Assembly (NCBI GenBank): GCA_977018835.1
Contig: OZ361261.1
Span: 1,922,001 to 1,986,000, forward strand
Direction: 5' to 3'
Length of the DNA: 64,000 nt
Source of the DNA: Minutocellus sp. GHC0000111
Taxonomy: Eukaryota
Below the pieces are notes generated by a model. It did not search any database. It was not told the DNA's origin and saw only the letters and a list, made by a program, of their open reading frames with translations. Position numbers and translations under genes: made by a program. This document shows, one piece after another, positions 10,266-47,438 of the stretch (its first letter is position 1; each line of letters opens with the position of its first letter).

Positions 10266-13200
10266 ATGCGCTTCATCGCGGCGGCCCTCACCGTCCTCCT
10301 CGTGGCGGAGACCGTCCAGGCGTTCGTTCCGGCCTCTCCCTCCGTGGTTTCTCTTTCCGCCTTTTCTGCCAGTTCCAGCGCCCTGTCGGCCACGTACAAG
10401 CTGGGCGAGAACGATCCCAACGACGTCAGCATCCCGTACGATGCCGCCGCCCGTCTGGCCTACGACGAGTGGACCAAATCCTACAACAAACCGTACGACG
10501 CCGCCCGGTACGAAACCTTCAAGGCCAACTACGAGGCGCTGACCGTGGCCAACGTCAAGGCCGCCAAGGCCGCCCGCGAGGCCGGCAGCGACGAACCCCC
10601 CAAGAAGTTGGACCTGAACGAGTACGCCGACATGACCGCCGAGGAGTACATGGCCATGCAGAACGGGGGGGCGGCCAGTAGTACTGGTGGTACCACCGCC
10701 CTCAAGTCGGAGTCCACTGAAGAGGAAAACAGCACGGGAGATGTGCTGGGTCAGGCCGTCGAGGCCGCCGGACTGCAGAACGATGCCAGCTCCGCGTTGG
10801 CCGAGGCGGCCGATGCTCTCGCCGAGGAGGAGGAGGTGCGTTCATTTGGCTTGACTTTGCGTGCACTTTTGAGGGATGTTGATGGGTAGAGTTGGCTTTG
10901 ATTTGGTTGGTGGGGAAAGGAAGTACATGGGCTTAGGCTGATTATGGATCAATGTGGAAGTTGGAAAAGGAGATGAAGGCAAGAAATTGAACTGCAAGGA
11001 ACGAACGAATTAGCATTGACTGCTGCATGTGACTTGTTCGTTCAGGCCTGATGGATGGGTATCCTGGATGCTCATTTGCATTTGCCGGACAATATCTGAA
11101 GATCAATTCATGAAGTGATTTGGTTGGGCCGAATCAATGCATGTTGGGATGTCGAGGTTTTCGTCATTGGCATCACTTATTTCTACTCTGCATCTCAAGC
11201 AAGTATCTGACCCATACACATCATATCATTTCCTCTTACTTCACTTCACTCCTACATCCCATCACAACAGGCTCTCGCCAAGGCCCTTGGTCTGGAGAGC
11301 GTCGAAGAGCTCGAGGTGGCCCTCGATTCCCTCGAGGGCATCGCCGAGGATGGCGGCGAGCTGGATCCCGAGAATCTGTCCCGCGAGGCCCGCGTCCGTT
11401 CCGCGTATCTGGACTGGTGCAAGGAGTTCGACAAGCAGCCCGACGAGGCCCGCTTCCCCCAATTCTCCTCCAACTACCTCGCCATGGAGGCCTACGCCAA
11501 CGAGAATGGCAAGGAGATGACATTGAACAAGTTTGCCGACTGCACCGAGGAGGAGTACGTTCAGATCACCACCGGCAAGGCTCCCGAGCCCAAGGCCGAG
11601 CCGGAGCCCGAGCCCGAGCTGGCCGCCGCTTCTGCTGCTGCTCCCGTGGAGGAGGCCAAGTTGGAAGACGGCATTGATATCAGCATTCCGTACGATGCTG
11701 CTGCCAAGTTGGCGTACGAGTCCTCGGACAAGTCCATGTCGTTTGATGACTTCAAGGTCGAGTATGAGGCCGAAGCCATTGCATTGGTCAAGTCCAAGCA
11801 GGGTGCTCCCGCCCCCGCTCCGGTGGCCAAGGCACCCGCCCCGGCCGCAAAGAAGGCTGCTCCGGTGGCCAAGAAGCCGGCCCCTGCTCCTGCTAAGAAG
11901 GAACCGGAACCCGAGGTGGATACCAAGACACGTCGGGCGCAGCAGGAGAAGGCTGCGGAGAAGCTCCGTGCGGACAACGAGGCGGCTGCTATCGCTGCTG
12001 TCAAGGCCGCTGCCGAGGCTGAGGCTGCCCAGATTGCTAAGCGACGTGCTCTCGATGAAAAGGCGGCTGAGTTGGAGAGGCAAAAGGCCGCCGAGGCAGC
12101 TGAGAAGATTGCCAAGAAGCAGGCCGAGAGAGGTTCTACTATTGTTATTCCTCGGAGGGAGCCTGTTAAGCCCACTCCGCCCCCTCCTGTTGCCGAGGAG
12201 AAGAAGCCTGCTGGAGTTTTGGGTATGTTTGCCAAGCCTGCTGCTCCCAAGGTTGCTGTCAAGAAGCCCGCTGCTCCCAAGGTTGCTGTCAAGAAGCCCG
12301 TCGCTCCTCCTCCTCCTCCCGCTGCCGCGAAGAAGGAGCCTGCTGCCGGAGGTCTGTTCGGTATGTTTGGCGGAGATGCACCCAAGCCCACTGCTAAGAA
12401 GGCCACTCCTCCTCCCAAGGCTCCTGTGAAGAAGGCTGCTCCTGCTCCTGCCCCCGCCAAGGCCGCTGCTCCCGCGCCCGCTTTCCCCTTCTTCGGAGGA
12501 GCTGCCAAGCCCGCTGCTCCCAAGAAGGCCGCCCCCACCCCTGCGCCAAAGGGTAAGTTGTATCGGTGTCGTTGATACATCTCCTTGATATCGTCGCCTT
12601 TTTTGCTTTCATATATCTAATTTTTGTATACCCCCTACCGATCGTTCTGATATTGTAGCACCAGTCAAGGCCGTGCCCAAGGTCACTTCGGAGGATCCTG
12701 TCACCGATGCATTCTCGGCTTTCTTTGGTTCCAAAGCCAAGCCTGCCGCAAAGAAGGCTACCCCTCCTCCTCCTGCTCCAGTACCTGCTCCCAAGCCGGT
12801 ATCTCAAAAGTCTGCTACATTCTCTCTGTTTGGCAACGCCGCACCGAAGAAGGCTGCTGCTCCTGCGCCTGCTCCCGCCAAGGTCGCTCCTGCTGGGCCT
12901 ACCCCAGCGCAGATTGCCGCTGAACGCAAGGCAGCCGCCGAGGCTAAGCGCCAGGAGGCTCTTGCTGCCGCCCAAGCTCGTAAGGTGGAACAGCAGCGAG
13001 TGGCCGCCGAGAGAAAGGCTGCCGCCGAGGCCAAGCGCCAGGAGGCTATCGCTAAGAGGGAGGAACAGGCCCGTATTGCTCAGGAGAAGAGAGCTGCCGC
13101 CGCCGCTGCCGCACAGGCCAAGCGCGAACAGGCTCTCGCTGCCGCAAAGGCTAGAAAGGCCGCTGCTTCTGCTCCTGCCCCCGCTCCTAAGCCCGCGCCA

Positions 13201-14136
13201 GTCAAGAAGTCGCCTACCTTCTCTCTGTTTGGCAATGCTCCTAAGCCTACTCCTCCTCCCGCTCCGGTACAGGCACCCGCCCCGGTTGCGAAAAAGCCCG
13301 CTCCATTCTCGTTCTTCGGCGCTCCAAAGCCTGCTGCCAAGGCACCCGCTCCGGCTCCTCCTGCCCTGAAGGCCCCTGTGAAGCGTTCTCCTACCATCTC
13401 GCTCTTTGGCAATGGCCCCAAGCCCGCTGCAGCAAAGCCTGCTGCTCCTGCTCAGGCCCTTCCCAAGGTCACTTCTGCCCCGAAGGGTGTGCCGACCATT
13501 GTTGGATTCCGAAAGCTCCGAGATGGAAGCGTTACTGGAAAGATCTACGGATCTCCTAGCTTTGAGGATGGCGAGCAACTCACCACCTCGCCCATAACCT
13601 CTGGAACTGTCGCTAACGGCAATCTTGTCCAGACTGGATCTGGTAGCCGGTACTTCTTGAGCGCTACCAAGCCTGGCGGTGCTGCCGCTGCCGCCAAGCC
13701 GGCTGGAGGAGGGTTCTTTGGCAAGCCCGCTGCCAAGAAGGTCGCGCCTCCTCCGGCTGCCGCCGCCAAGCCCGCTCCTGTGAAGCGATCGCCCACTATC
13801 TCTCTCTTTGGCAACGCTGCCCCGAAGAAGGCCGCTCCGGCTCCTCCGGCACCGACCCCCGCTCCCGTCAAGAAGTCCCCAACCTTCTCCCTCTTTGGAA
13901 AGCCCGCTGCCGCACCGAAGAAGAACGGCGCCGCACCGGCCGCTTCCGTTGCTGATGCCAATATTCCTGTCCTCAAAAACTGGGTTCAGAATCCGGATGG
14001 CAGCCTAACGGGCAATGTCAGCAACACCAAGTCGTTCCGTGCTGGTACTGAGATCACGACGTCTCCTGTCCGACGAGGGGCCAAGGCTGGCACTGTTGTG
14101 GCCACTAGCTCTGGCAGCAAATACAAGCTTATGTAA
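10266..14136 (+). CDS. Large plastid-targeted multi-repeat protein (I29 propeptide-inhibitor-like domains, Pro/Ala/Lys-rich linker, C-terminal beta repeats); exons ~10266-10835, 11271-12552, 12659-14136
   Basis: Signal peptide VQA-FV. GT-AG introns restore the frame (EEE|ALAK, PK|APVK). Two 'W.K..K....R...F..NY....N......LN.(Y/F)AD.T.EEY' units, two 'SIPYDAAA.LAY' units and two 'DGS.TG....F..G...TTSP......V.T.SGS.Y.L' units. Confidence 0.85.
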
Positions 14137-17602: not shown

Positions 17603-17908
17603 GTACGAATCGAGGCCCGGCGTCGGCGCCGCGGTGGCCGGGTTGCGCGATACGATGGCCACACAGCACCATCTGCCGGATGACTCGCATACTTTTGGTC
17701 GCACTTTCGGTGGCCGGCCGGCGCGCGAAGCAACCGACCGGCGCGCGCCCAACAAGAGCCACCATGGCGGCAAAAATTCAAATTGCCGCCGCTGCGTGCA
17801 GAACGAAGGCGATGTCTCGCGCTGGTGTGGGAGAATTACGGCACGAGACCAACCAGGTACTCCCGACATCCTGGTGATATTCCCGTTGGTCTCGATCCAC
17901 AGCTCTCC

Positions 17909-19121
17909 ATGAGCAAAAAAATGACGGCCGCAATCCCGCAGTCAACACCGCAGACAGAGTTGCGGTGCAGGACGCCCTCTGGCTGAACTGCTCGTCCGTC
18001 TTCGCAGAAAGGAACTTCATTACTACAATTTCATCGGCAACAACAACGACTCCTTGATGAATGTGTTGGGATGCAGTCCCATCACGTGCGGCGCCGTCAT
18101 GCACACTGCGGGCATCTTGGGTTTGAAGAAGAAGAAACACTATGACGACGACGTGTTTTTTGTGAGGACAGACAACCAGAATGGATGGGATGAAATGGCA
18201 TCAAGACACTGCCTTGCCGACGACGTTCAGCGAACCCCATGCAAAAGAGCATGTTTGTTCGCCTCGGCTCTGTCAATCCTCGTGCAGCCGACGCTCTCCA
18301 TGATGATGGATGGATGGCTTTCGACATGGTCACGGTCGAGCAACAACTTCGCCTCGAAATGCCGCCGCCGCGGCTCAATTTGACGAAGGCATGCAATGCA
18401 TTCCTCAAGTCGGTCGCACCACACATGTCGGTGGGACATGCGGCGATGGACTACGAAATCAACAGGCAGATGTTGCTCGAGGCCCAGAAGTTCCCTGGTG
18501 GGTGCAATGGCCAGGACGATGGGTGGGACAATGACGACGATGTTGGGACGGTGGGCACCCTGACCACGACGGAGGCCGGCGAGATCAGTGAGGACGATGA
18601 CGACGAAGACGAGGACTGTGTGCCCTGTTGTGAGAGGACGAAGCTGACATTGCAAGAGAGGACGCCACACATGAAGCATGCATGCAGCAGCACTTTGTGA
18701 GAAGAATCGTCAGAAGCACGGTGATGGCGAGCCAGAGATGGGAGCTGTCGATGATGCCGAGGATGACGATGCCCCTCACTTCCATTTCCTGAAAAAGGCC
18801 GGCATTGAGGCGGCCGACTCAGGTAAAATAAGGGCAGTGCTGGCAGAATGCTGGAGAGCTTTATCTGTTAATGTTTCTGATGGCAACAACAAGAAGAAAC
18901 CAAGGACAACAGAGTTCATCCACCACAACACCTCCACCAAAGGAACTCTCCTAGAGCACAATCGCGAGGAAGATGGCATGACGGATGACGACATCAAAGA
19001 GCTCTGCAAAGCTTGCTCTAATTTGCTCCACACTCTTGACACAATGTGTTCCAGGTTTCTGAAATGGCACATGAAGTGGGATGATGAGGCAAAGGAACTG
19101 ATGACAAGCGCCAACAAATGA
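17909..19121 (+). pseudogene. Degenerate, frameshifted repeat-derived ORF (probable transposable-element remnant), TpA-depleted
   Basis: Several overlapping ORF pieces with frameshifts. A second copy of part of it lies at 40510-40776. Almost no Tyr codons, with excess Cys/His. Confidence 0.55.
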
Positions 19122-20172
19122 TCATGATGGCCACCGATGGAGATGAGGATGTAGAGATGGGAGCAGGGCATGTATAAAATTAGAAAATGAAATTACACTG
19201 CTACTACACAATGACAAATGAATTGCATGGTCCAACTTTTACAAACAGCATCGCGATTGAGCAAAAAAGCAAGTAAATTGTGCACCCAAACAAACACATC
19301 ACGTCCTTCTTAACTCACCCATTTTTATCTCCCAGACCAAAAAGTCCCTTTGTCGGGTTGATTGTTGCATAAACTTATCCCAATACTATCTGTTTCTCCT
19401 CGGGCGCAAAATTGTTGTCGGAATTCCGGGAGGTCGAGTGGGGATGCGATCGGTCGGGATGATCAGCGAGAGTCGGTCATGCGGGGGGTGCGGCGCAATC
19501 CCGGCAGTTCATCATCAACAACAACGTGGGAAAGTACCAGAGGGTCTGGGGCATCACAACGGGAGCACGACGAGCACAAAGACGGAGCAATGGCACCACC
19601 CCAGAGAAACGAACGGCCGACAGATGATGATGGTGGAGGAAAAGTGGGCCGATGGTTCGTGGCGTTGATGCGCAGCGGAGGCCAATCTGAGGATGTGCAG
19701 TGAGCTTCAACTACATCCAAACATGATATAATGAATGCGTATTTGGTACGAAAATATAGTTATACGCCGGCGCAACGCCGACGGACCACCATGGTGTTGG
19801 ACGGTCAAAGAATGGGTGACGAACGAGATTGGGTTTTGGTGGGTTTCTTCGTGACGTGTTCGTCTTCTGCCGAAAAACGCTTCATCCGAAACAAGACGAG
19901 ATGGTGGGGCTGTGTGATCAAGCAAGATGCGATAAAATCTGTCCGTCAACCGGACACAACCGATCTGTCCTTCAACCGGAACCACCACAGACTCAGTACG
20001 AGTAGGTCATACGAGGTCAGATTCGCGAGAAATCGAGCGCCCGGTTTTTGACTGCTTTCGAGGGGATTGAAAAGCGCCTCGAAGAATAGTCATGCTGAAA
20101 TATTTAAGAAAATGGCTATTTTTACTCTAATTTTGATTTATCTTCATGTGAAACAATAATTCGGATATAAGT

Positions 20173-20620
20173 TTAGATTTCAGCGGCTGTAATCAAATGG
20201 TTCGTGCGACGCGACGGTTCGGCCTCCATCTCGTCTTCATCTTGAACGATGGCATGATGCTCGCCTCGGATCGGCAGTACGATGCATTCGTCCCGGATCT
20301 CGCACCACAGCCAATCCGGGATGAGTTTGAGCTTCTTTAGCTCCCGCTTCACGCCGTTGAACTTGTAGATGAAGGTAACTGAGGAGTGGAACATCTCCGC
20401 GGCCTTGTCGTACACCGATTCAGTTATTGCCACGACATCATCCATGTCGAGGGGCATGTTCTCGGCCCTTATCGCCCGGCAGACGAGTCGACTGACGACA
20501 TTGAGGAGCATGTGCTTCTCAAAATCCTCGGGCCCGTCAATCTTGAGAGTTTTCTCCTGGTCAATGATGATGGCCAAGACAGCGGTGAGCATGTGTTCAA
20601 TCCATTTGTGTCGGGCGGAA
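20173..20620 (-). CDS. Unknown helical protein fragment on the antisense strand inside element 1
   Basis: Part of ORF 20173..20790. KWIEHMLTAVLAIIIDQEK...FIYKFNGVKRELKKLKLIPDWLWCEIRDE has natural protein-like composition and ends near the left TIR. Confidence 0.4.
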
Positions 20621-22111
20621 GTCGAAGCTGAGCATTTCGATGACGCGATCGGCATACTTGGACCGGTATACTGCTTCCCAACGAGTGCCGATGATTCATC
20701 TGATTCGGCCGCCTTCCGTTCTGTCATCGACGATCTTGCAACGGCGACCCGGCGGCATACTGCACCATGTCTCTTTGCAATAATTGCCAAGTGCAGGGAG
20801 CAGGCAAAGGTGGACTATTCGGTGCTGTCCAGCGCAGAGCATGGTGCACGATTTTCGGGATGGATGAAGGCGTATGGTGCTCTACCTGCATCTGAGAAGG
20901 CGATGTGGGAGATGAAGAGGAGATCTCATCTGGCTATGCAGCCACACATTCGAGATGTTATTGTTGATGCTCTGATACGAAATCCTCGGGAATCTTGGCG
21001 GGAGCTGGAGGTTGATGTCAACTTTTGGTGTTCCTACTCGGCAATACGGCGGTGGATAATGTCGCGGGAGGGGTTCCGGTACTATGCCGAAAGGATCATC
21101 CCTCTCCTTACTACCCATCAGATGGAGAAACATTTGGTATTTGCGCGGAAATTCCGAAACAATTGGGGGCTCGGCGGTGGCAAGTTTCTCCTTATTATGT
21201 TCGATGAGAAGTGGTTTTGGGGCTTGGTTCTTCGATCGTATGCCAAGCAAGTTGCAGAATTGGGTATTGATCCTCGGTCCTTCTCGGCATATCACCGAAA
21301 TCACATCAACAAGTGCATGGTGGTGGCTGTCACTGCCTTGGCTTTTATTGACAGCATTGAGAATGGCGGCATTGCGTTCAAGCTTGGACGTTTTCGGGCT
21401 CAGGCGCATAAAATTGCGAGGCAGATGGTAAGGGAGGCGGTGCGGCAGGCAGATGGTAGAATCAAATATTGCGGCCCGGTGGTTCGGAAGAAAGACGATC
21501 TATACCTTGTGGATTGCGCGGTGACTGGATGCAGCCATGGCACCCTTGATAATCCCAAGTTCCCACTGAAAGCTTTATTTGAGAACAAGATGTTTCCGGA
21601 TGTTGAGGCTTTGGTCGGACCTGGTGGAAAGTTTGAAGGCTATGTCCCTATTTTTCAGGGCGACAATGCTGGGCCCCATGCCGAGACTGAATTTGTGGAA
21701 TATGTGGAAGGATACTGTCGGGACAAGGGATGGCGTTGGGAACCTCAGGCCCCGCAAATGCCCCATATGAATGTTCTTGATCTGTCTGTTTTCCCTTGCA
21801 TGTCAAAGCGGCATACAATGTTGAGCCGCGATCGGGAGGGGCTGAAGGTTTTGACAGAAGATCAGACTTGGGATGCAGCGGAGGAAGTTTGGATGGGGCT
21901 GGAAAACTGGAAGATCGCATCGGCATACATCCAGGCTCATAGAATTGCAAAGAAGGTAATCGTTGCAAAAGGCAACAATGATTTTCTTGGAAACGGTGAA
22001 GGCATTCATGTTGGGGTGCGAACGGATTTCAGGCCGACTGAAAATGGCATGGTTCGGATAGATGGGAAAATTATCGCTCCTCCTCCTGCTGATCCAACCA
22101 TGGATAATTAG
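20369..22111 (+). CDS. Mariner-like transposase, DD38D, with HMG-box-like and HTH-like N-terminal regions (true start uncertain)
   Basis: FDEKWF / FQGDNAGPH / QAPQMPHMNVLDLSVF correspond to the DEKWF / QQDNA.PH / QPPNSPDLNVLDLGFF blocks of plant-type mariners. 38 residues lie between the 2nd and 3rd Asp. Confidence 0.9.
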   Translation: MKVTEEWNISAALSYTDSVIATTSSMSRGMFSALIARQTSRLTTLRSMCFSKSSGPSILRVFSWSMMMAKTAVSMCSIHLCRAEVEAEHFDDAIGILGPVYCFPTSADDSSDSAAFRSVIDDLATATRRHTAPCLFAIIAKCREQAKVDYSVLSSAEHGARFSGWMKAYGALPASEKAMWEMKRRSHLAMQPHIRDVIVDALIRNPRESWRELEVDVNFWCSYSAIRRWIMSREGFRYYAERIIPLLTTHQMEKHLVFARKFRNNWGLGGGKFLLIMFDEKWFWGLVLRSYAKQVAELGIDPRSFSAYHRNHINKCMVVAVTALAFIDSIENGGIAFKLGRFRAQAHKIARQMVREAVRQADGRIKYCGPVVRKKDDLYLVDCAVTGCSHGTLDNPKFPLKALFENKMFPDVEALVGPGGKFEGYVPIFQGDNAGPHAETEFVEYVEGYCRDKGWRWEPQAPQMPHMNVLDLSVFPCMSKRHTMLSRDREGLKVLTEDQTWDAAEEVWMGLENWKIASAYIQAHRIAKKVIVAKGNNDFLGNGEGIHVGVRTDFRPTENGMVRIDGKIIAPPPADPTMDN

Positions 22112-22356
22112 TCCTGCGGTGCTTTTAAGTTATGTTATGTTTAAAATAATACTAGATTATTTAGATTCGAGCTATATTTGTGCTACTACACACACATGCC
22201 GTACATGCATGTGTAGTGCTCTCTTGTCAGTTTTGATGGTTCCGGCTTTACATGCATGTGTCCGTGTCCGGGTTGCGGACCCAAAAATCGACATTTTTTG
22301 GTCCCGGCCCTGCGCTCGATTTCTCGCGAAACGGACTTGTAGGATTCCTATGAACA

Positions 22357-27567: not shown

Positions 27568-28169
27568 TGTATTGTATTATTTAGCGTGCGTCGTGGGGGT
27601 TGGACGTGGTCAGCTGGGAGCGGACACGCAACACTGAGATGATCCGGAGCGTCAATTGATAAAGCGATGCCGGTCGCAATAGAATGTGCAAATGGACGTG
27701 ATCAGCAGCGATAGAGCAGGCTACAGGTGGCAGCAGCAAACAGTAAACCGCCGCATTCATCGCGGCCATCGTTGCGTTTCTCTCATCGAGATCCGACGAC
27801 GAAAAGACCAGTTCTTTCGTCCGTCCTTCCGTCGCCCTCGCGATCGCCTCATCATCAGTCATCGCATCTGCTGCTACTAGCTAGGCCTAGCTAGCTAGAA
27901 GTAGCTACGTAGCTAGGCTATCTATCTCGAGCTCGCGAGAGCCGCGATTTTCTTTCCCACACCGAGTGGGCGCCATTATCAGCGCGCTCTCCGAGGGCAC
28001 TTCGTGATTGCTACGAAGTGGTGAGAAGGACAACAGCAGACTGGCACCGACTGACTGACTGACTGTGATGCTGTGACACATGTGTGTGTGTGTGTGCGCG
28101 CACGAGAGTCGCACGCAGAGAGTCAAGATCATCTACTACGTAGCTAGCAGACTAGATCTACACATGTAA

Positions 28170-29040
28170 CATGCACAATGTCCGGGAAGTGGCCGCCTTC
28201 GGCTTCTACCCGCGCAACGGGCACGAACCTCTCTCTCCAGACACCATGATGATGCTAAAGCTCGCGCCTCAGCAGCCTTGTCTCACAAAGCCCCCCCCCT
28301 CGGCCAGCCAGCCCGGTTTCCGTCCTGGCTGGAGAAAAACCACCTAAGGACGCCACCTACCTTCCAGATGCCCTCCTTGGTCGAGGTGCCCCAAATCACG
28401 GGCGCCGGTGCTGCCTCTGCGGCCGGTCCGATCGACCACTGGCTCCGCCAAAACTTCCCGCAGGACGACCCGGTCCTCCTCCGCCTTGACGGCGAGCCGC
28501 CACTCACATCATGCGCACTGAACAATGCTGGCGCCGACTCCCAACCAACCACTTGCCCACACATCCTCCCTGGCACCTTGGCCACCACAGCCCCCGCCAG
28601 TCTCTTCACACCATTCGCTCCCAGCAGGAGGAGGAAGCGCGGGTCGCCGAATGGCGATGGAGCCTGTCGGACCCACGCCCAGACAACAAAAGCACCCGCT
28701 GGAACCTCCTTGCCTTCCCCTCCCATGCGGAACCCCTCACACCGGACGAACTCGGCAGCCGCGTCCCACAGCGTTCGGAGACACCATCCGCCTAGACCCT
28801 GAGTGCTCAGACCGTCGAATGCCATGCGCCCGCACCATCGATGGCCTCCAACCTGCGGCCCTCGCCGCCTCCGATGCCCAGAGGTCTGCAATCGGACGGA
28901 TTCGGCACACTGCTGCACAACTAACTCAACTCCTTCCCTGTCCTCGCCTCCGACGCTGGACGAGCCGTTATCAACGGCGAGGCCTACGTCGTCGCGGCAG
29001 CAGTCCTGTGCACAATAGACCTTCGACAGATTGACATCAC
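28170..29040. other. Probable degenerate repeat/TE fragment (Pro-rich broken ORFs, TpA-poor), next to a TA-palindrome tract
   Basis: Broken + strand ORFs with His/Cys-rich, Tyr-free translation. No homology recognised. Confidence 0.35.
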
Positions 29041-38090: not shown

Positions 38091-38481
38091 CTTGCGTTGC
38101 CGACAGTGCTCTGCGTCTATTGGAGGTTCACTCTCGGCGGCCGCGGGTTATGACGAAGGGCGACAGTAGAATTACCCAGTCCAGCGTGGCTCATCACATC
38201 CAAAGCAAAGCCACCACCAACCCTTCGGCATTTGCGCGCGTGGCCTCAACGGCTGTTGCAAGACCGCATCAAATGTTTGCACTTGGTTCAGTGCAAAAAT
38301 GATGGGATCGAAATGGCTCGACTCGACTAACTTGACTGATTCATATTAATCGAATGAGTCGGAGTTTTATACGTACGTTGCAATGTAGTAGATGAAATAC
38401 TTATGCTCGCATTTTTCAATGAAGAAGGCAAAGGCGTGAGAGCAACCAGCGGCCACACCGGTAGTCCATCGACAATCAATC

Positions 38482-40972
38482 ATGACCAGCGCCCGGCGCA
38501 GAACAAATCGCTCAGGAGGACATGGTGGCAGCACAGAGAGAACAATGAACGAAGGCCAATCTGCCGGTGCCATCTCCTCCGCACTCCAGCCCACCACCCT
38601 CAAAATCATTTGCGCCCTGGCTGGTTTTCTCCTGCACATGCGATCGACATGGAGATGTTACTTCCCCTACGACGACGGTGGGGGTGTGCGGAACAATCCC
38701 GATGTGCTCAACCAGTCCAACGCCAGCGGGTTGGGCGTCGGCGTCATGTCAAAATGGACCGAGGTGTTTCGCAACGATTTCTGGGGCACCAGCATTAGCA
38801 GCCCCCTCACACACAAGAGTTGTCGGCCGATTGTCATCATGAGCTTTCGGATCGACGCCATCATCACTAAATGGGTAGAACGAAACGTGCTGGGCGAAGC
38901 ATGGGTGGAACAAATGGAACACGATGCTGACATTGAGCATAAAGGGGCATGGATGTTCCACGTGACGAATGTTGTGCTTTGTGCACTGGTTTGGTATCTG
39001 GTGGTGGATGTCCTGCTGATGCCAGTCGCCAAGGCGGCAGCTGAAGGATTCATATCAACGCGACGCCAATCCATGAATACGTTGTCGAGGAGTCAATCAT
39101 TGGGAATCCTCTTGGCCGGCCTTTGGTTTGCATCCCACCCAGTCCACGTTGAATGTGTTGCTCAGATTGTCGGAAGAGCGGAGACACTTGCTGCCTTGTT
39201 CTGTCTCGTTGGCACAAAATGCTACAATGTTGCTAAAACGAGTGATAACGTTTTGTCATCCTTGGGAGCCAACATTGGTCTCATGATATCGCTGTTTCTC
39301 GCGTGTCTCTGCAAGGAAACTGCGTGCGTCTTGCCAATTGTTCTTATCGGAACCGACATTGCCGTAGCTGTCTTGGCTCCCTCAAACATAAATGTCAAGG
39401 ACCACATCTGGACCAAGCCATCGTTTCCAACTCTATCATCCATCAGTGCCCTGAGCGTGACGGTTGGCTACCTTGCCTTTCGATCATGGCTCTTTGAGGG
39501 CCGTCAAGATCTGTCACCGCAAAACATTTTGATGTGCGACAACTTTGTTCTGCATTTATCAGGGATGCCAAAGTTGATGACGGCATTGTGTGTTCAAGCC
39601 AAGCATGTACAACTGTTACTCTGGCCCGATGAAGCATCGTCCGATTATTCTCTGGGGGTTGTTGATCCAATTTTCACTTGGTCAGACTCGAACATGGTTT
39701 TATTTTATGGTGTCGCGATGGGCCTAACACTTGCAATTGGATCGGCGTTACAAACATTGATGCAGCGTGGGAATACAGCGCTAGTTCAAGCAATTGGCTG
39801 GACTTTCGCCCCGTTAGTTCCAGCTTCGCATGTTGTGACAATAGGGACGCCCATGGCAGAACGGTTGCTGTTTACGCCGAGCATCGGGGTTGCCATTTTG
39901 ATTTGTTATTTATTTGCGGTTGCGGAGGAACCGGGAGCGCGCTTTGCATCGGGTCGCCAAAGAATGCCGATACAGACCATCATTCTCATTGCAATGGTGG
40001 CAGCATCGACTGCTCGTTTTTCTATTATGACATATCAGAGAGTTCCAGAGTGGGAAGATTCGAAGGCTGTATTTGAAGCTGATGTCAAAAAGTTCCCACA
40101 GTCAGTCAAGTTGAACATGGCACTTGCTCGGGGGTGGTGGGGTGAGACCGCCGAGGAGTCAGCCAAAAGTTATGCGCATGCAATGGCAGCGCAAGAAGTA
40201 GTTGATTTGTATGGAGATGGTTTGAAAGATACGCCATATGTTATCGGGCTCCCGATGATGGCCTTTCAGCATGCACGGACCTCTGCATGGCCAGATGCAG
40301 ACTTGGGCAAAGCTCTTTCATTGGCAAAAAAAATTGAAGAACTAGATGCGCAGCGAAAGATTAGTGCTGACGACATGGCATTCGTCTTGTCCGCGAGGGG
40401 GCAGGAATTTCTCAAATTAGGACTGCCGAAGCAAGAGAAGCAGCTTCTCATTGAAGCCGAGGCTGCATTTCGAGAGGCTGAACGAAATGATGGCACCAAA
40501 AGAGCGCCATGGCTGAACTACTCGTCCGTCTTCGCAGAAAGGAACTTCATTACTACAATTTCATCGGCAACAACAACGACTCCTTGATGAATGTGTTGGG
40601 ATGCAGTCCCATCATGTACGGCGCCGTCATGCACACTGCGGGCATCTTGGGTTTGAAGAAGAAGAAACACGAAGACTGCGATGTGTTTTTTGTGAGAGAG
40701 GACAGACAACCAGAGTGGATGGGATGAAATGGCATCAAGACACTGCCTTGCCGACGACGTTCAGCGAACCCCATGCTGATGTGAGTGATTATGCAAACTT
40801 AATGGGCGAACTTGCGGGATTTAAGAACACAGATGTATCAGCTGCCTCAAAATGGGGCACGGAAGCAAAACGGGCTCTGAGTACAGTTCTATCGCATCCA
40901 GGGCTCCACGAGAAGCCCGGGCACGAGAAATTGTGGCAGACAATGTTGAGTTGGGTTGAATCAAATGTGTAA
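38482..40972 (+). CDS. TMTC-like (DUF1736) protein O-mannosyltransferase, C-terminus interrupted by a captured ~265-bp fragment
   Basis: YDD...RNNP, FRNDFWG, HKSCRP, FHVTNV, FASHPVHVECVAQIVGRAE, LCKET, SSDYS, AERLLFTPSIG, R..EW. The tail resumes after 40776 (ADVSDYAN...WVESNV*). Confidence 0.85.
40510..40776 (+). repeat. Dispersed duplicate of 17980-18242
   Basis: Near-identical sequence tggctgaact...cgaaccccatgc at both loci, with a few substitutions and one 4-nt indel. Confidence 0.95.
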
Positions 40973-41725
40973 AAAATATAAAAGGACAGCATTGCTGGGA
41001 ACTGTTCTATCTAGCTAGAAGCTTAGTCCCTTGGAGATTTGCTGCTGTAGTTGACTTGCTGATGATTTAGACCTACCTACATACGGGAAGCTTCCGGTGT
41101 GTAGTAGTACCTGGCAAGCAACTGAACTCTCCTCCGCGTTCGGTACGAGGTCGCGGACAGCAGTTTCAGGGACCCGGTTTTCGGGTCTTTGGGCAAAATC
41201 TCATAAAAATCAGCACAAACGCACGCAGCAAGCAGCATTTATTTGCCATCGTCCTGTCTTCAAGATGGCGGTGACGGCAGTGCCGATGGCATCCGCTTCA
41301 CGCAAGGGACAAGCGTGGTGTCTCCAGAACGGGTTGGTCCTTGACCTTGGACCGACTCGGAGACATCGATTTCATCTTCCCATGCCAGCGTCTGGCCGAT
41401 TCACCCCATCCATCGCCCCTCCCGACTTCTGCCAGTTTTTCCGATGACAACCGGTCACCTCCTCCACCTCCCGACCCCACCACCACCTCCCAAATGCATT
41501 GATTCAAGTAGCCATGTGGTTTGAGCTCCGACATCGGTCTCCATGGTCCCCACAATGGCGCATCTTATGCGGTCCGGGTGACCCCGCGCCAAAATCGAGC
41601 GGGCCAAAAAAATCATCACCCGCCCGGCGCGCCCTCCACTCAATGAAACCTTCCTCATTTCCAACCCACCCGACATACAAACTGTTGCTCTACTGCCACA
41701 AAATACTGCATCCAACACCATATTA

Positions 41726-43361
41726 ATGCAAATGGCTGTTGCTGCTGCTGCCACCGCAGCTGATGCGCCAGCATGTCGCCGCTCCCGTCGGTCCGGCAGC
41801 TCCATCCCATGCTTTGATTATTTTGTCCATCGGAGCGGCACCATCGATGCCTCTACGATTCGTGGCAAGTCTCCTGGGATGATCCAGACCATAGCGAACC
41901 GGGCATGGGCGGGCCTCTCACTTCAGAAACAGCAGGATGTCATGGAGCAAGCCCGAGAGGAGGAGCTGTGCTGTCCGAGCCAGACCGGTCCTGATCCGGC
42001 ACAAGATGTGCCGATTTCTCAAATTCAAATTGCTCGGCGCAATTCGTCATCCAACATCGCCGATGCCAGCCCTGAGCCGACGGTCGAGGACAATGCTGGT
42101 GTCGCTGCTCGTCCTGGTGATGATGACATCGAAGCTGGGGGCATCGCCGAGTCCATGGTGGTGGATGGAAGCGGCAACAGTGAAGAATCTGGCAATCCTG
42201 CCAGTGTCGGTGTTTCTGCTACCGGCACCGCCAATTCTGGTGGATCGACCGAGGAGAATTTGGATGTGCTGCTGGTTGAGGCCGAAGCGCAATGCAAAGC
42301 TGCAGAGGAGGCTTTGAAAGGGCTAAGGGACACCTTGAAACGAGAAAAGCGGAAGGATGAAAAGGCCATGGCCGATGCCGAGAAGAAAAGGAACAAAATG
42401 AAGGATGAGAACGGCAATTTACCGAATGCGAGTTCTCCTCGTGCATTGCGATGAGAAATGGTTCTGGGGTCTCGTCCTCCGAGCTTTTGCGAAGGCTTGC
42501 GAGGAAATCGGCGTGAAAAAGCGAGATTACGCGGCCTTTCACAGGAGCCACATCAACAAGGTCATGGCCATTGCATTTGTTGCCGCTGTCTTTGACGGTT
42601 CTCTTGAGAGTGGGTGCGAGGTTGTAAAACTGCCACTGGTACGAGCTCAAGCTCCTAAAATAGCGGAGCGAGCTCAGCACGAAGCAGTGTCACAGCCTGA
42701 TGGTTCAACACGGCACCCAAATACCAACCCCGATGGGACACCAAAGGAACCTCTTCGCCGGAAAGGAGAGTCGTTTCTTGTTGATTGTTGCGTTACTGGA
42801 TCGAACGAAGGCACCAAAAAGGATCCGAAATGCTCTTTGCTCCTCGTATTCAAGGAGACTATTTTCCCAGCGATTCTCAACCTTGTCGGTCCGGGCAAGC
42901 AATACGAAGATTGCCATGTTATTATCCAGGGCGACCAGGCCGGGCCTCACGAGGACGGAACCTTCACGCAATTTGTTACTAACTTCTGTGCTGAGCAAGG
43001 CTGGACGTGGCAGCCACAGGCACCGCAGATGCCTCACGCCAACGTCCTTGACTTGAGCGTGTTCCCCGCGATGAGCCGGCGGCACTCGGAATGGGCACGA
43101 AAAATGGTAGGCACCTCCGTCATTTCCACCGACCAGATCTGGGACACTGCCGAGGACGTTTACGATAGCATGCCTAACTGCAAAATTGCTTCGGCCTTCA
43201 TTCAGTACTGGAGGATAATGGGCCTGGTGATTAAGGCCGGTGGTAGCAATGAGTTTGTTGGAAGGTTGGGTGACGAAAACTTGCACACTGGAATTAGGAT
43301 CGACTTCAACGAAACGGCCAAGGGGATGGAGCCCTCAGCTCGTCATCCTTCTAATAAATAG
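41726..43361 (+). pseudogene. Mariner-like DD38D transposase, frameshifted or internally deleted at ~42420
   Basis: ORF 41726..42454 (HMG-box-like segment + coiled coil) overlaps ORF 42405..43361 (CDEKWF, QGDQAGPH, QAPQMPHANVLDLSVF). The HTH/linker region present in element 1 is missing. Confidence 0.85.
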
Positions 43362-43456
43362 ATAGTGTTAATGTCTTTACACATGTATTAAATAAATGTT
43401 ACACGTCTACAAATTATTTATAGATCTACATGTAAGATGCAGCAGCATTGGTTTGT

Positions 43457-44590
43457 TTATGTCACGGTGGGCTTCTTTGTTCTTCTATTTCTACCGGTAT
43501 TCTTTTTTGCCTCCTTGGCCTTCTTATGATCATTAGAAAGCCACACAGCGTGGAGGGACTGACGAATCTTTCCGCGCTTCACACCATATGCATCGGCAAG
43601 TTTATTGTCAGTGAGGTCAGGGTGAGCAGTTGGTTGTTTACTCCCATCCTCATATCCCAACTTATATGCATCTAATGCAATCTTGTCAGTAGATAATGCA
43701 ATAGAGAATTCTATTGTCTTGTTATCATACAATCCGAGTTCTCTGCTTCTCCACCCTTTCGGGTAGGCACCACGACCCTCTCTTACTTGGCGATCGACTT
43801 CGATCATGCCTAGCACTGTGGTGACCGCGACCTCGCTACCCCAACCAGGAACTTGTTTGAAGGGGAGGTAGACCCCTTTCTCTTTTCTTCTTGGTTCGGG
43901 CCTCTGACTACATGTGGGTGACTTGTAGTTCTTTATATCTTGTGGTAGTGGTGCTTCTCCGTACGTCAAAAAGCACGCAAGCCTCCGATGTTCCTCAACC
44001 TCTCGTTCAATCTGTCGTTCGGTTGGTTCGGTTGGAGGCAAGGGCTCCAAGATGGTAGGGGATGACAATTGAAGGTTGCTGAACGACGGGCATGAGCGGC
44101 TTGGGGTAAGAGCATACTGAGTATGAACTGACATTGGACTTGTTACCATGGGCGTGGCGGAGGGAAGGTCGAATGAGCTCACGGGCTTTCTCCTCTCGCC
44201 GCTTGGCTTTGCGTCGGCGGTTGCTATGCTCATCTCTGAGAATGAATCATCTTCATCAGAATGAGATGAAACGGTAGCGGTACCGCGAAAGTCGGCACGC
44301 AATATGTCATGATGCAAGTACTTCCTTGCTTGGGCTTGTTCGGCGGCGAAGCCATCCTCTTCGTTGTACTCGCGTCGATATTTCAACACACGAGGAGATG
44401 TGAGGTCTGACGATGCCGGTGGGACCCCTTGGTTGTCCTCCTCGTCATCGTTGTCCTTGTTCTCTCGATACCGCGGATGTTCCGGCGGAACGGAAGTTTC
44501 CTTCTCATGGCGCGAGGGGCTGAATGCAGTCGCCTCGGCGCATTTCGGTGGACGCGGTGGACTGAAGATGTGTCCCTTTGGAGTATCCAT
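43457..44590 (-). CDS. Unknown cargo/accessory protein inside element 2 (~377 aa; disordered N-half, folded C-half, basic NLS-like tail)
   Basis: Uninterrupted ORF from MDTPKG, lying entirely between the TIRs and convergent with the transposase. Confidence 0.7.
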   Translation of the reverse strand: MDTPKGHIFSPPRPPKCAEATAFSPSRHEKETSVPPEHPRYRENKDNDDEEDNQGVPPASSDLTSPRVLKYRREYNEEDGFAAEQAQARKYLHHDILRADFRGTATVSSHSDEDDSFSEMSIATADAKPSGERRKPVSSFDLPSATPMVTSPMSVHTQYALTPSRSCPSFSNLQLSSPTILEPLPPTEPTERQIEREVEEHRRLACFLTYGEAPLPQDIKNYKSPTCSQRPEPRRKEKGVYLPFKQVPGWGSEVAVTTVLGMIEVDRQVREGRGAYPKGWRSRELGLYDNKTIEFSIALSTDKIALDAYKLGYEDGSKQPTAHPDLTDNKLADAYGVKRGKIRQSLHAVWLSNDHKKAKEAKKNTGRNRRTKKPTVT

Positions 44591-44828
44591 GAGTATGGAA
44601 GCTTCTTGAAGCGCCAGTCGGCAGAAGTTGCCCAGTCTATTTGTGGTAATTGCTTGGAGGTCGGTTGTTGACGGATTTGTTTTGTTTTGCTTGCTTTGCC
44701 ACGTGTTTTTCAAGGTGGGCGCAAACCGCCGTGTCGGAAAGTCCAAAGACCCAAAAAACCGGGTCCCCGAAATTGCTGTCCCGGACCTCGTAGGAGACAC
44801 CCGGAGGATGTGATGACCTCGCCAAAAG

Positions 44829-44854
44829 TACGAGCTCGTACATGTAGGAATTCC
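44829..44854. repeat. Footprint array TA-CGAGCTCG-TA-CATG-TA-GGAATTCC
   Basis: The first unit equals the first 4 and last 4 nt of element 2 joined between two TAs. Confidence 0.75.
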
Positions 44855-44949
44855 GCCTGCAGCTGCGGCTTTCAACACAAGAAGGCTGATCCCCCGAGTA
44901 GACGACGATACGCCGGTTTGCCACCAATGGCCTCAGCGGAGCAAAGATA

Positions 44950-45831: not shown

Positions 45832-47438
45832 CTATCCCTTGTATTCCTTGAGTACATCGCCGGCAATCACAAGATGCTGAATCTCACTCGTGCCTTCGTA
45901 AATTTCTGTAATCCGAGCATCGCGATAATGTCTTCCGGCTGGCATATCCGAGACGTATCCCATCCCACCAAGGACTTGAATTGCTTGATGAGAGCACATG
46001 GTTGCTGCCTCGCTTGCTGCCAGCTTGGCCATGGCCGCTTCTCGAGTGTACTTTTCACCAGCGTCCTTGAGCATAGCCGCTCTCCACATGAGCAGTCGGG
46101 AAGAGTCGCGGGCTATAGACATGGCGCTAATCTTGTTCTGAATGGATTGAAAGGAGGCGATTGGCTTGCCGAATGCCTGGCGTTCAAGAGCGTAGTTGGC
46201 TGCGCAATCAATCGAGGCAGAAGCAATGCCCACAGCTTGACCGGCAACTCCAATGCGCCCTCCATCCAAGGTTTTCATGGCAATCTTGAAGCCATCGCCC
46301 TCCTTGCCAAGCAAACTATCAAGTGGAATGCGAACATTATCAAAGATGAGGTTGGAAGTTGACGAAGCACGGATGCCCAACTTGTCTTCCTTGGCGCCAA
46401 GAGAAAATCCCTCGGCATCAAGAGGCACGATAAAAGCCGAAATACCCTTGTGTTTCAGAGATTTATCGGTAGTGGCAAATATGACAGCCGCCGTAGATTC
46501 ATGAGCATTGGTAATCCATGCCTTGGTGCCGTTGATAATCCACTCACTTCCATCCTCCGACAGGGTGGCGGTTGTCGAGGCGGCGCCGGCATCACTACCA
46601 TTGCCAGGTTCCGATAGGCCGAAGCAGCCAATGTTGAGGGTTTCGTCGTCCTTAATTGGCTGCGCGTACGGGGTCACCCACTTCTCCTTCTGCTCGTGAG
46701 TTCCGAATGCCTGGATGGGCCACAGGTAGAGCGAATTGTGCGCGGACATGATGACGCCAGCAGATGCGCACCCACGGCTAATCTCCTCCATGGCGATGGC
46801 ATAGGCGAGAGCATCGAGCTCAGAGCCACCATACTCACCGGGGACGTTGATTCCCATCAGGCCAAGCTCGGCCTATTGGAAGCGAAAGAGCAAGTAGTGT
46901 GTCATCGAAATGTGTATCAATTGCATGTGTCAATTGCAGCGATGCAATTCAGCATTTCATGTGATGTGACGGAATGGAATGGAATGTGACAAGAGCAAGG
47001 AATGAGAAAGATGCAAAGAATGGCTTTTGTCAGTTGAATGGTGATAAAATGGGCACAGCTTGGCACAGCAAAGTCCTAACCTCTGAAACCGAACCGATGG
47101 CATGAAGATTTGCCAATCGGCGCACTTCAACGTTACGTGCGGTAACGCACCATATGAGTGATTGCCTCAGTGGGAAATGCATGTTTCTGGTCCCACTCGC
47201 CGGCGTTGGGCGCCAGCTCTTCGTTTGCAAAGTTGCGGCACATCTCGTAGATCATCTGATGCTCCTCAGGAAGCTGTGAGTGGGTGGTGTATTGGCGCTG
47301 ATTGGAAGGTAGGGAAACATTCGCCGATGACGAACCCGAACTCGTTGCTGCAACGGCCGGTGCCAGCTGCTTCGAGACGGCGGTTGAGATGGAGTAGCCG
47401 GCCCTCTTGGACAGGAGGGAAGCTGAACGGGAGAGCAT
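45832..47438 (-). CDS. ACADS: Short-chain acyl-CoA dehydrogenase, mitochondrial; intron 46873-47150
   Basis: [69 protein letters not shown]. Mitochondrial transit-like N-terminus. Confidence 0.93.

Follow-up and report, generated by a model that had tools for sequence, protein, structure and literature searches.

A regional process in this diatom turns TA into TG or CA, at T[A]Y and best at RTAY, in transposon copies and in a host-gene allele broken by an insertion, and the signature it leaves in the sequence points, with slightly more confidence than doubt, to a DNA adenine deaminase that is directed to the silenced chromatin of transposons. What is observed is the class and direction of substitution, the hierarchy of contexts, the equal use of both strands, the copy-by-copy patterns, the unequal loads of copies and alleles, and a reach that takes in about 2 kb of a single-copy gene. 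The TA-poor sequence in the window (the whole stretch of 64 kb that was analysed) is a transposon copy with the following parts.

17662-19914, plus strand: non-autonomous Chapaev/CMC-like DNA transposon copy, heavily TA-eroded, with a terminal inverted repeat and ends CAC...GTG.
17979-19174, plus strand: frameshifted remnant of a 1097-aa transposase, keeping residues 5-328, 901-950 and 1072-1097, spread over several frames (family member P0101 used in tblastn).
18241-19140, no strand: TA-poor core with 7 TA, in which 22 of 25 family-polymorphic TA sites are converted (12 to TG, 10 to CA).

A first-pass annotation of the window had estimated by eye about seven TA in the core, and the count is exactly 7, compared with 47 expected from base composition and 28 expected at the window-wide ratio (Poisson P 2e-6 for 7 versus 28; 1.4e-4 after correction for 71 windows). 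The observed/expected ratio of TA is 0.15 there versus 0.60 across the window, those of TG and CA are 1.70 and 1.34, and the lowest six TA scores in 900-bp windows sliding over the 64 kb all lie in the core region. RTAY does not occur in 17909-19140, where RTGY and RCAY together number 61; the rest of the window (minus this region and the TMTC/mariner block described below) has 620 RTAY versus 1616 RTGY plus RCAY. The scarcity of Tyr that the same annotation reported is equally real (none in the 147 aa of ORF 18678-19121, one in the 153 aa of ORF 18239-18700), and of the Cys/His-rich stretches that it cited, VPCCER is partly a frameshift product. The TA/TG differences that it saw between duplicate copies exist at 17990/40520 and 18088/40618, but they are just two of nine substitutions between those copies and are thin alone. 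The depletion is not an assembly artefact, since among the contigs of four runs some have TA and others TG/CA, and one X5 contig agrees letter for letter with the window across seven clustered derived sites (39503-39653). Elsewhere in the window, a third stretch (28001-29000) has 0 RTAY versus 47 RTGY plus RCAY and ORFs without a Pfam match, possibly representing another eroded element, and 11211-14136 is a long Pro/Ala/Lys-rich repetitive coding region with an I29 propeptide-like match at its N-terminus.

Other copies of the element terminate in GCTGTG followed by differing flanks, and contig depth summed over 17640-19900 is 1e5-1e6 in four runs versus 686 in the flank in run X1, a quantity that shows a very abundant repeat and is not a copy number. 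The family set, assembled from the hits of a single-ORF search and from cluster membership, with large clusters represented in part, comprises at least 76 proteins (8 representatives and 68 members listed), mostly on megabase contigs, and at least two of the proteins listed are full-length (1089 and 1097 aa). Alignment of the transposase with 21 distant relatives (22 proteins) revealed invariant D516, D615, E1004/E1008, C632/C635, L703/H704 and H983, and a nearly invariant H978. The DDE triad and the C(2)C, LH and H(4)H motifs are present in full-length P0101 and deleted from the window copy together with the rest of the catalytic middle (residues 329-900), a deletion that most family copies have as well. 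Chapaev/CMC transposases are described as having CAC/GTG terminal inverted repeats, an acidic triad, and C(2)C, LH and H(4)H motifs (PMC4079192), and the element shares each of these features. It differs in lacking a recognised 3-4 bp target duplication: its flanks GGCCA and TGATC share no repeat (a single site, with no empty site seen), and by its sequence it is therefore named Chapaev/CMC-like instead of being filed as a full member. A Pfam search of the window element's ORFs gave no match, Pfam and solved-structure searches of its relatives gave nothing past weak DUF1280 matches, a profile search of solved structures gave coiled-coil matches only, and a metagenome scan with the transposase found no relative; a Gag_p24 identity for family members was rejected, the scores being weak and non-significant. 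The near-full-length transposases P0047, P0098 and P0101 differ mutually by Tyr/Cys, Tyr/His and Ile/Thr, which indicates that autonomous copies are hit too. Joined together, the flanks of the element (17661/19915) give CATG, an apparent minus-strand start codon of a WW-domain gene, with a mariner about 95 bp further upstream of this start; the gene may be disrupted in the window haplotype, yet it shows no TA loss.

The substitution spectrum of the family was derived from 74 of the 76 proteins at 478 columns, each with at least 15 copies, with residues near gaps, ends and frameshifts masked; it is counted on predicted proteins, to which synonymous sites and broken-frame copies are invisible. 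The conversion of TAY to TGY and CAY, giving Cys and His from Tyr as the first-pass annotation held, is evident at 13 Tyr columns (74 copies, 603 calls), which contain 195 Tyr, 201 Cys, 204 His, one Arg and two Ser, and no Phe, Asn or Asp. (Two of the 13 columns show no Tyr, and their ancestral state was called from the mixture of Cys and His.) Single transitions to Cys or His make up 405 of the 408 derived calls and transversions make up 2, so that the columns form a star around TAY, with both strands equally used and no double hits. Six ATA columns contain 104 Ile, 85 Met, 108 Thr and one Pro. Controls at the same codon positions are far lower (N>S 27/846, H>R 1/789, D>G 1/2391, K>R 0/1538, Q>R 2/811, E>G 1/2147), and reverse, RIP-type changes are nearly absent (C>Y 1/340, H>Y 1/789), in keeping with the earlier remark that RIP works in the opposite sense to TA>TG/CA. 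The window copy has 24 of 27 family-polymorphic TA sites converted (12 to TG, 12 to CA), the survivors being CTAC, ATAA and TTAT, and one family copy of 544 aa has zero Tyr. Together, the 22 converted and 7 surviving TA of the core imply at least 29 ancestral TA, a normal figure, and hence an ancestor that was not TA-poor. The refuting condition set by the first-pass annotation therefore fails: the 24 conversions speak against a family consensus that is itself TA-poor, and a control gene (see below) kept all ten of its conserved Tyr. The proposal of an A>G mutator at TpA acting on repetitive DNA is thereby sustained, on either strand, by the family of 74 copies and by the window copy.

It is hardly credible, and largely refuted, that nothing special is involved and that this pattern comes from codon choice, decay of CpG, errors of assembly, or a bias that is genome-wide and visible only where DNA is dead. 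TA is indeed under-represented window-wide and the strongly hit sequences are all probably selection-free, but TA is ancestral according to orthologues and outgroups (columns 941 and 1027 hold Tyr or Phe in the outgroup transposases), the same derived sites turn up in independent runs, RTAY is at 0.84-1.12 of expectation elsewhere in the window, and two alleles of one locus differ by 14 versus 0 losses among 46 TA. CpG decay as the source was rejected, with the Arg (CG) allele found once in 603 calls and CpG-type changes in the family numbering 20/3052.

The share of sites changed is 33% at T[A]Y, 3% at A[A]Y and about 0.1% at C/G[A]Y, a steep fall from the first context to the second and a further one to the third, and a 3' purine protects. 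At 14 sites mapped on the window DNA, the counts per strand are 406/896 for RT[A]Y, 60/227 for YT[A]Y and 13/227 for RT[A]R. Adenine methylation of the ApT type was rejected as a poor match to this pattern, in which T[A]C and T[A]T are equally hot while G[A]Y and C[A]Y stay cold. Polymerase eta has a WA preference, and the 5' order T>>A>C,G also fits this enzyme. An error-prone Y-family polymerase (eta-like or iota-like) that puts G opposite T on methylated, late-replicating transposon chromatin, yielding A>G at W[A], would therefore account for the gradient of rates from T[A]Y through A[A]Y to C/G[A]Y, as well as for the A>G class and the preference for TA over AA. This route is also compatible with reports that polymerase eta, which works preferentially where replication is late, inserts dGTP across from template T (PMC13716900), and that diatom transposons are CG-methylated islands (PMC9998398). 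It is nevertheless unlikely, given the strict 3' pyrimidine, the A[A]R class left untouched (see K>R above), and the absence of the same-strand clustering that repair patches would give. Hypermutation driven by eta yields many transversions, in strand-coordinated patches, whereas transversions are nearly absent here (the two Ser, and no Phe, Asn or Asp, at the Tyr columns); such pure transitions favour base chemistry over a sloppy polymerase.

Base chemistry could in principle act on the other strand, since the sequence cannot separate A>G from T>C on the partner strand: thymine at R[T]A on repeats, oxidised to 5-hydroxymethyluracil and then 5-formyluracil, would pair with G and yield T>C as a pure transition. 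5-Hydroxymethyluracil is reported to be enriched on repeats in a dinoflagellate, and 5-formyluracil to pair with G, giving T>C (PMC11071213). The same source describes 5-hydroxymethyluracil without a sequence motif (PMC11071213), as opposed to the sharp motif found here, and the route is quite improbable.

The distribution of hits among copies is individual: 29 copies complete over nine sites have 28 distinct patterns, and the variance of load among copies is 0.028 versus 0.014 when permuted (the observed value was reached in 0 of 2000 permutations). The share of mutated pairs on the same strand is 0.49 versus 0.50 by chance, and this lack of strand coordination is the ground on which RNA editing followed by reverse transcription, and processive deamination of single strands, were rejected.

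A second body of evidence is the hypermutated allele of a host gene for a TMTC O-mannosyltransferase, broken near its 3' end by a piece of the same element.

38440-40510, plus strand: TMTC O-mannosyltransferase gene, approximately single-copy, hypermutated allele with 22 of 70 ancestral TA lost (14 to TG, 8 to CA).
40510-40776, plus strand: 267-bp piece of the CMC-like element, 95% identical to 17980-18242, which replaces about 38 codons near the 3' end of TMTC (orthologue alignment).
40777-40972, plus strand: stranded C-terminal piece of TMTC, the translation of which matches orthologue C-termini.

At 40510, runs X1, X2 and X5 each show a loose end that is the intact continuation of TMTC, and contig depth over the gene does not exceed the flank's in X1 and is near the flank's in X2; the runs compared here derive from three studies, one of which may be the source of the window sequence. 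Of the 36 listed allele differences, all of which were classified, 26 pair G/C in the window with A/T in some other allele; one site (39892) ran the opposite way, with orthologues siding with the window, and was dropped, leaving 25 polarised A:T>G:C changes, versus only 2 window-derived changes of any other class. The 25 comprise 22 at TpA (14 TA>TG and 8 TA>CA; Fisher P 2e-17 versus other A/T sites), two at A[A]T and one at G[A]T. At 17 of the 22 sites, the residue in close orthologues is that of the other allele and in no case the window's (three are silent, one precedes the start codon and one is ambiguous), from which it follows that the direction was TA>TG/CA. Losses by context are 17/28 for RTAY, 5/25 for YTAY, 0/8 for RTAR and 0/9 for YTAR, the same order as that of the family from independent data. 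There is no gradient of TA loss towards the insertion (6/16, 9/29 and 8/26, counted before one site was re-polarised), and the 19 TA just upstream are unchanged (P 0.003).

Several damaged alleles of TMTC segregate: besides the window's, there are alleles with 5-bp insertions at 38458 and 38613, the second of which breaks the frame, and with an unrelated insertion at 40114. Where one X2 contig covers the gene, 14 of 46 TA are gone from the window allele and 0 of 46 from the X2 allele (P 4e-5). The X1/X2 allele carries a 5-bp frameshift with TA loss absent in X2, so that it may be just as dead and yet is unhit, implying that being dead is not enough to be hit. The third allele, which received a separate insertion at 40114, shows TA>CA/TG changes not shared with the window at 40026, 40034, 40070 and 40083; its loose end at 40114 gave no convincing match when compared with the window. 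These allele counts and the overdispersed loads of the transposon copies are indirect evidence, from standing variation, of activity that is uneven between lineages. Two further TpA-type changes at 38635 and 39634 (Tyr>His and Val>Ala versus orthologues) are the same in all compared alleles and are probably older shared hits, and about 150 bp upstream of TMTC (38147-38300) are also present in another context in X1 and X2, with loose ends on both sides, such that the gene is bracketed by repeated DNA.

The TMTC allele bears on what triggers the mutation. The description of the process as repeat-targeted and RIP-like in the first-pass annotation is right in that transposon DNA is hit, but is too narrow, as an approximately single-copy gene beside insertions is hit as well, which makes duplication no more than a candidate trigger; the gene may also have been reached by leakage from repeats. 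A true analogue of RIP would sense duplication by homology, perhaps through DNMT4 (related to fungal RID), and mutate in the sexual cycle, leaking into unique DNA. The main victims are indeed high-copy elements, with loads that differ among copies as episodic events would make them, and DNMT4 is reported from 31 of 60 diatoms and may group with RID, its function being not known (PMC9998398). Such an analogue is very unlikely, with chemistry at A:T and not C, with about 2 kb of a single-copy gene hit evenly, and with a target in Bigelowiella natans that is single-copy and mutates in clonal lines (bioRxiv 10.64898/2026.01.13.699255).

The reach of the process can be judged from the two mariners of the window and from a control gene about 1 kb from the second of them.

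20012-22339, plus strand: mariner-type transposon 1, lightly hit, with Tyr>His at 20945 and intact TA duplications at 20010 and 22340.
41146-44790, plus strand: mariner 2, adjoining TMTC, with RTAY observed/expected of 0.19 in its left part and 0.65 in its right part, and intact TA duplications.
45832-46872, minus strand: acyl-CoA dehydrogenase control gene, unhit, with 10 of 10 conserved Tyr kept and 6 departures among 321 conserved columns, none of them TA>TG/CA.

Both mariners keep their two TA duplications intact (four in all), contrary to the earlier expectation that mariner target sites would be erased. A metagenome scan with the mariner found 3 loci of 66-82% DNA identity, too diverged for a spectrum and used only to polarise Tyr>His at 20945; in the main alignment of the window mariner with one of them (L001), the window has TG/CA against TA 17 times and the reverse 12 times. 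The right part of mariner 2 carries an unrelated minus-strand open frame of 491 codons (43457-44932). RTAY observed/expected is 0.00 at the TA-poor region of the element, 0.38 in TMTC and 0.19 in the left part of mariner 2 (range 0.00-0.51 in element, TMTC and mariner 2), whereas most of the window is near expectation, including the genes beside the 17662-19914 element. The spread is patchy, the WW-domain gene (1.03) and a dehydrogenase gene (1.12) having normal ratios despite adjoining elements. The named relatives of the acyl-CoA dehydrogenase are from diatoms, for instance Thalassiosira pseudonana (81%) and Cylindrotheca fusiformis (82%), and it is on these matches that the analysis took the source to be a diatom; erosion as the cause of a low RTAY ratio over this gene was rejected on account of its conserved Tyr. 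Tyr loss in TMTC (6/18) versus the acyl-CoA dehydrogenase (0/10; P 0.06) is a weak contrast, confounded by selection. Mutation is confined to regions of foreign or mobile origin, and the host gene that is hit sits between insertions.

The process itself is already known: TpA hypermutation was described in B. natans by Mettrop et al., who found in mutation-accumulation lines that A:T>G:C at TpA made up 230 of the 231 mutations that arose in two viral inserts (single-copy, from integrated giant-virus and virophage DNA), in a subset of lines and at a rate raised about 1000-fold, with transposon domains enriched among TA-poor genes (bioRxiv 10.64898/2026.01.13.699255). Shared with that system are near-exclusive A:T>G:C transitions, TpA targeting that gives TG and CA on both strands, regional action on mobile DNA, loads uneven among lineages, and single-copy DNA among the victims. 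The differences are that the host is a diatom (a stramenopile) and not a rhizarian, that the victims are DNA transposons and a host-gene allele, that the evidence is standing variation here and new mutations there, and that RTAY is hot, YTAR cold and A[A]Y weakly hit (about 3%), departing from strict TpA; the main text of the preprint mentions neither diatoms nor flanking context (bioRxiv 10.64898/2026.01.13.699255). What is new in this window is a DNA-transposon family in which the process could be measured on 74 copies, a weakly hit A[A]Y context, a spectrum free of transversions and of strand coordination, and a single gene with several alleles that were hit differently. A literature search for a diatom report of TpA hypermutation found none, most subscription papers being outside its reach.

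Fungal RIP consists of C:G>T:A transitions, mostly at CpA, which create TA, and is duplication-triggered, premeiotic and RID-dependent. The process in this diatom resembles it in making dinucleotide-specific transitions on both strands, degrading transposon copies and being able to reach neighbouring genes, but removes TA, raises GC and makes no stop codons. With the chemistry reversed, no stop codons, and single-copy DNA hit, it is RIP-like in purpose and is not RIP.

The most likely agent, judged from these patterns, is a chromatin-guided DNA adenine deaminase. Adenine would be deaminated to hypoxanthine and read as G at replication, and a site would no longer be a target once TA had become TG or CA, which would explain the lack of CG products. 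Hits would arrive one site at a time over many generations, with targeting that would follow a chromatin mark placed on inserted elements and not the pairing of duplicated sequence. No sense codon becomes a stop by TA>TG/CA, which limits the damage to missense, and the outcome would be a slow missense poisoning (Tyr>Cys/His, Ile>Val/Met/Thr) that leaves reading frames open. Mettrop et al. propose an ADAT2/3-like deaminase for B. natans (bioRxiv 10.64898/2026.01.13.699255), and by analogy such an enzyme may be hypothesised as the candidate here.

A mutation process in print for one rhizarian alga thus extends to a diatom, suggesting a broad, overlooked genome defence with chemistry opposite to that of RIP; an adenine-deaminating defence against selfish DNA is likely. 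The bolder reading, tentative and somewhat short of probable, is of a natural defence shared by diatoms and chlorarachniophytes as the mirror of RIP, in which an RT[A]Y deaminase would be switched on allele by allele at transposon landings, rewriting host genes too and killing by missense with frames left open. Hot RT[A]Y, weak A[A]Y, no transversions and no strand coordination constitute a fingerprint for testing candidate enzymes. The deaminase, if real, would amount to a base editor that occurs in nature, acts on adenine in eukaryotic DNA and is targeted through chromatin, which would be of interest for base editing. In such genomes an open reading frame may have been killed by missense, the age of a transposon calculated from copy divergence would be inflated, and host genes near insertions can gather dozens of amino-acid changes in one allele.
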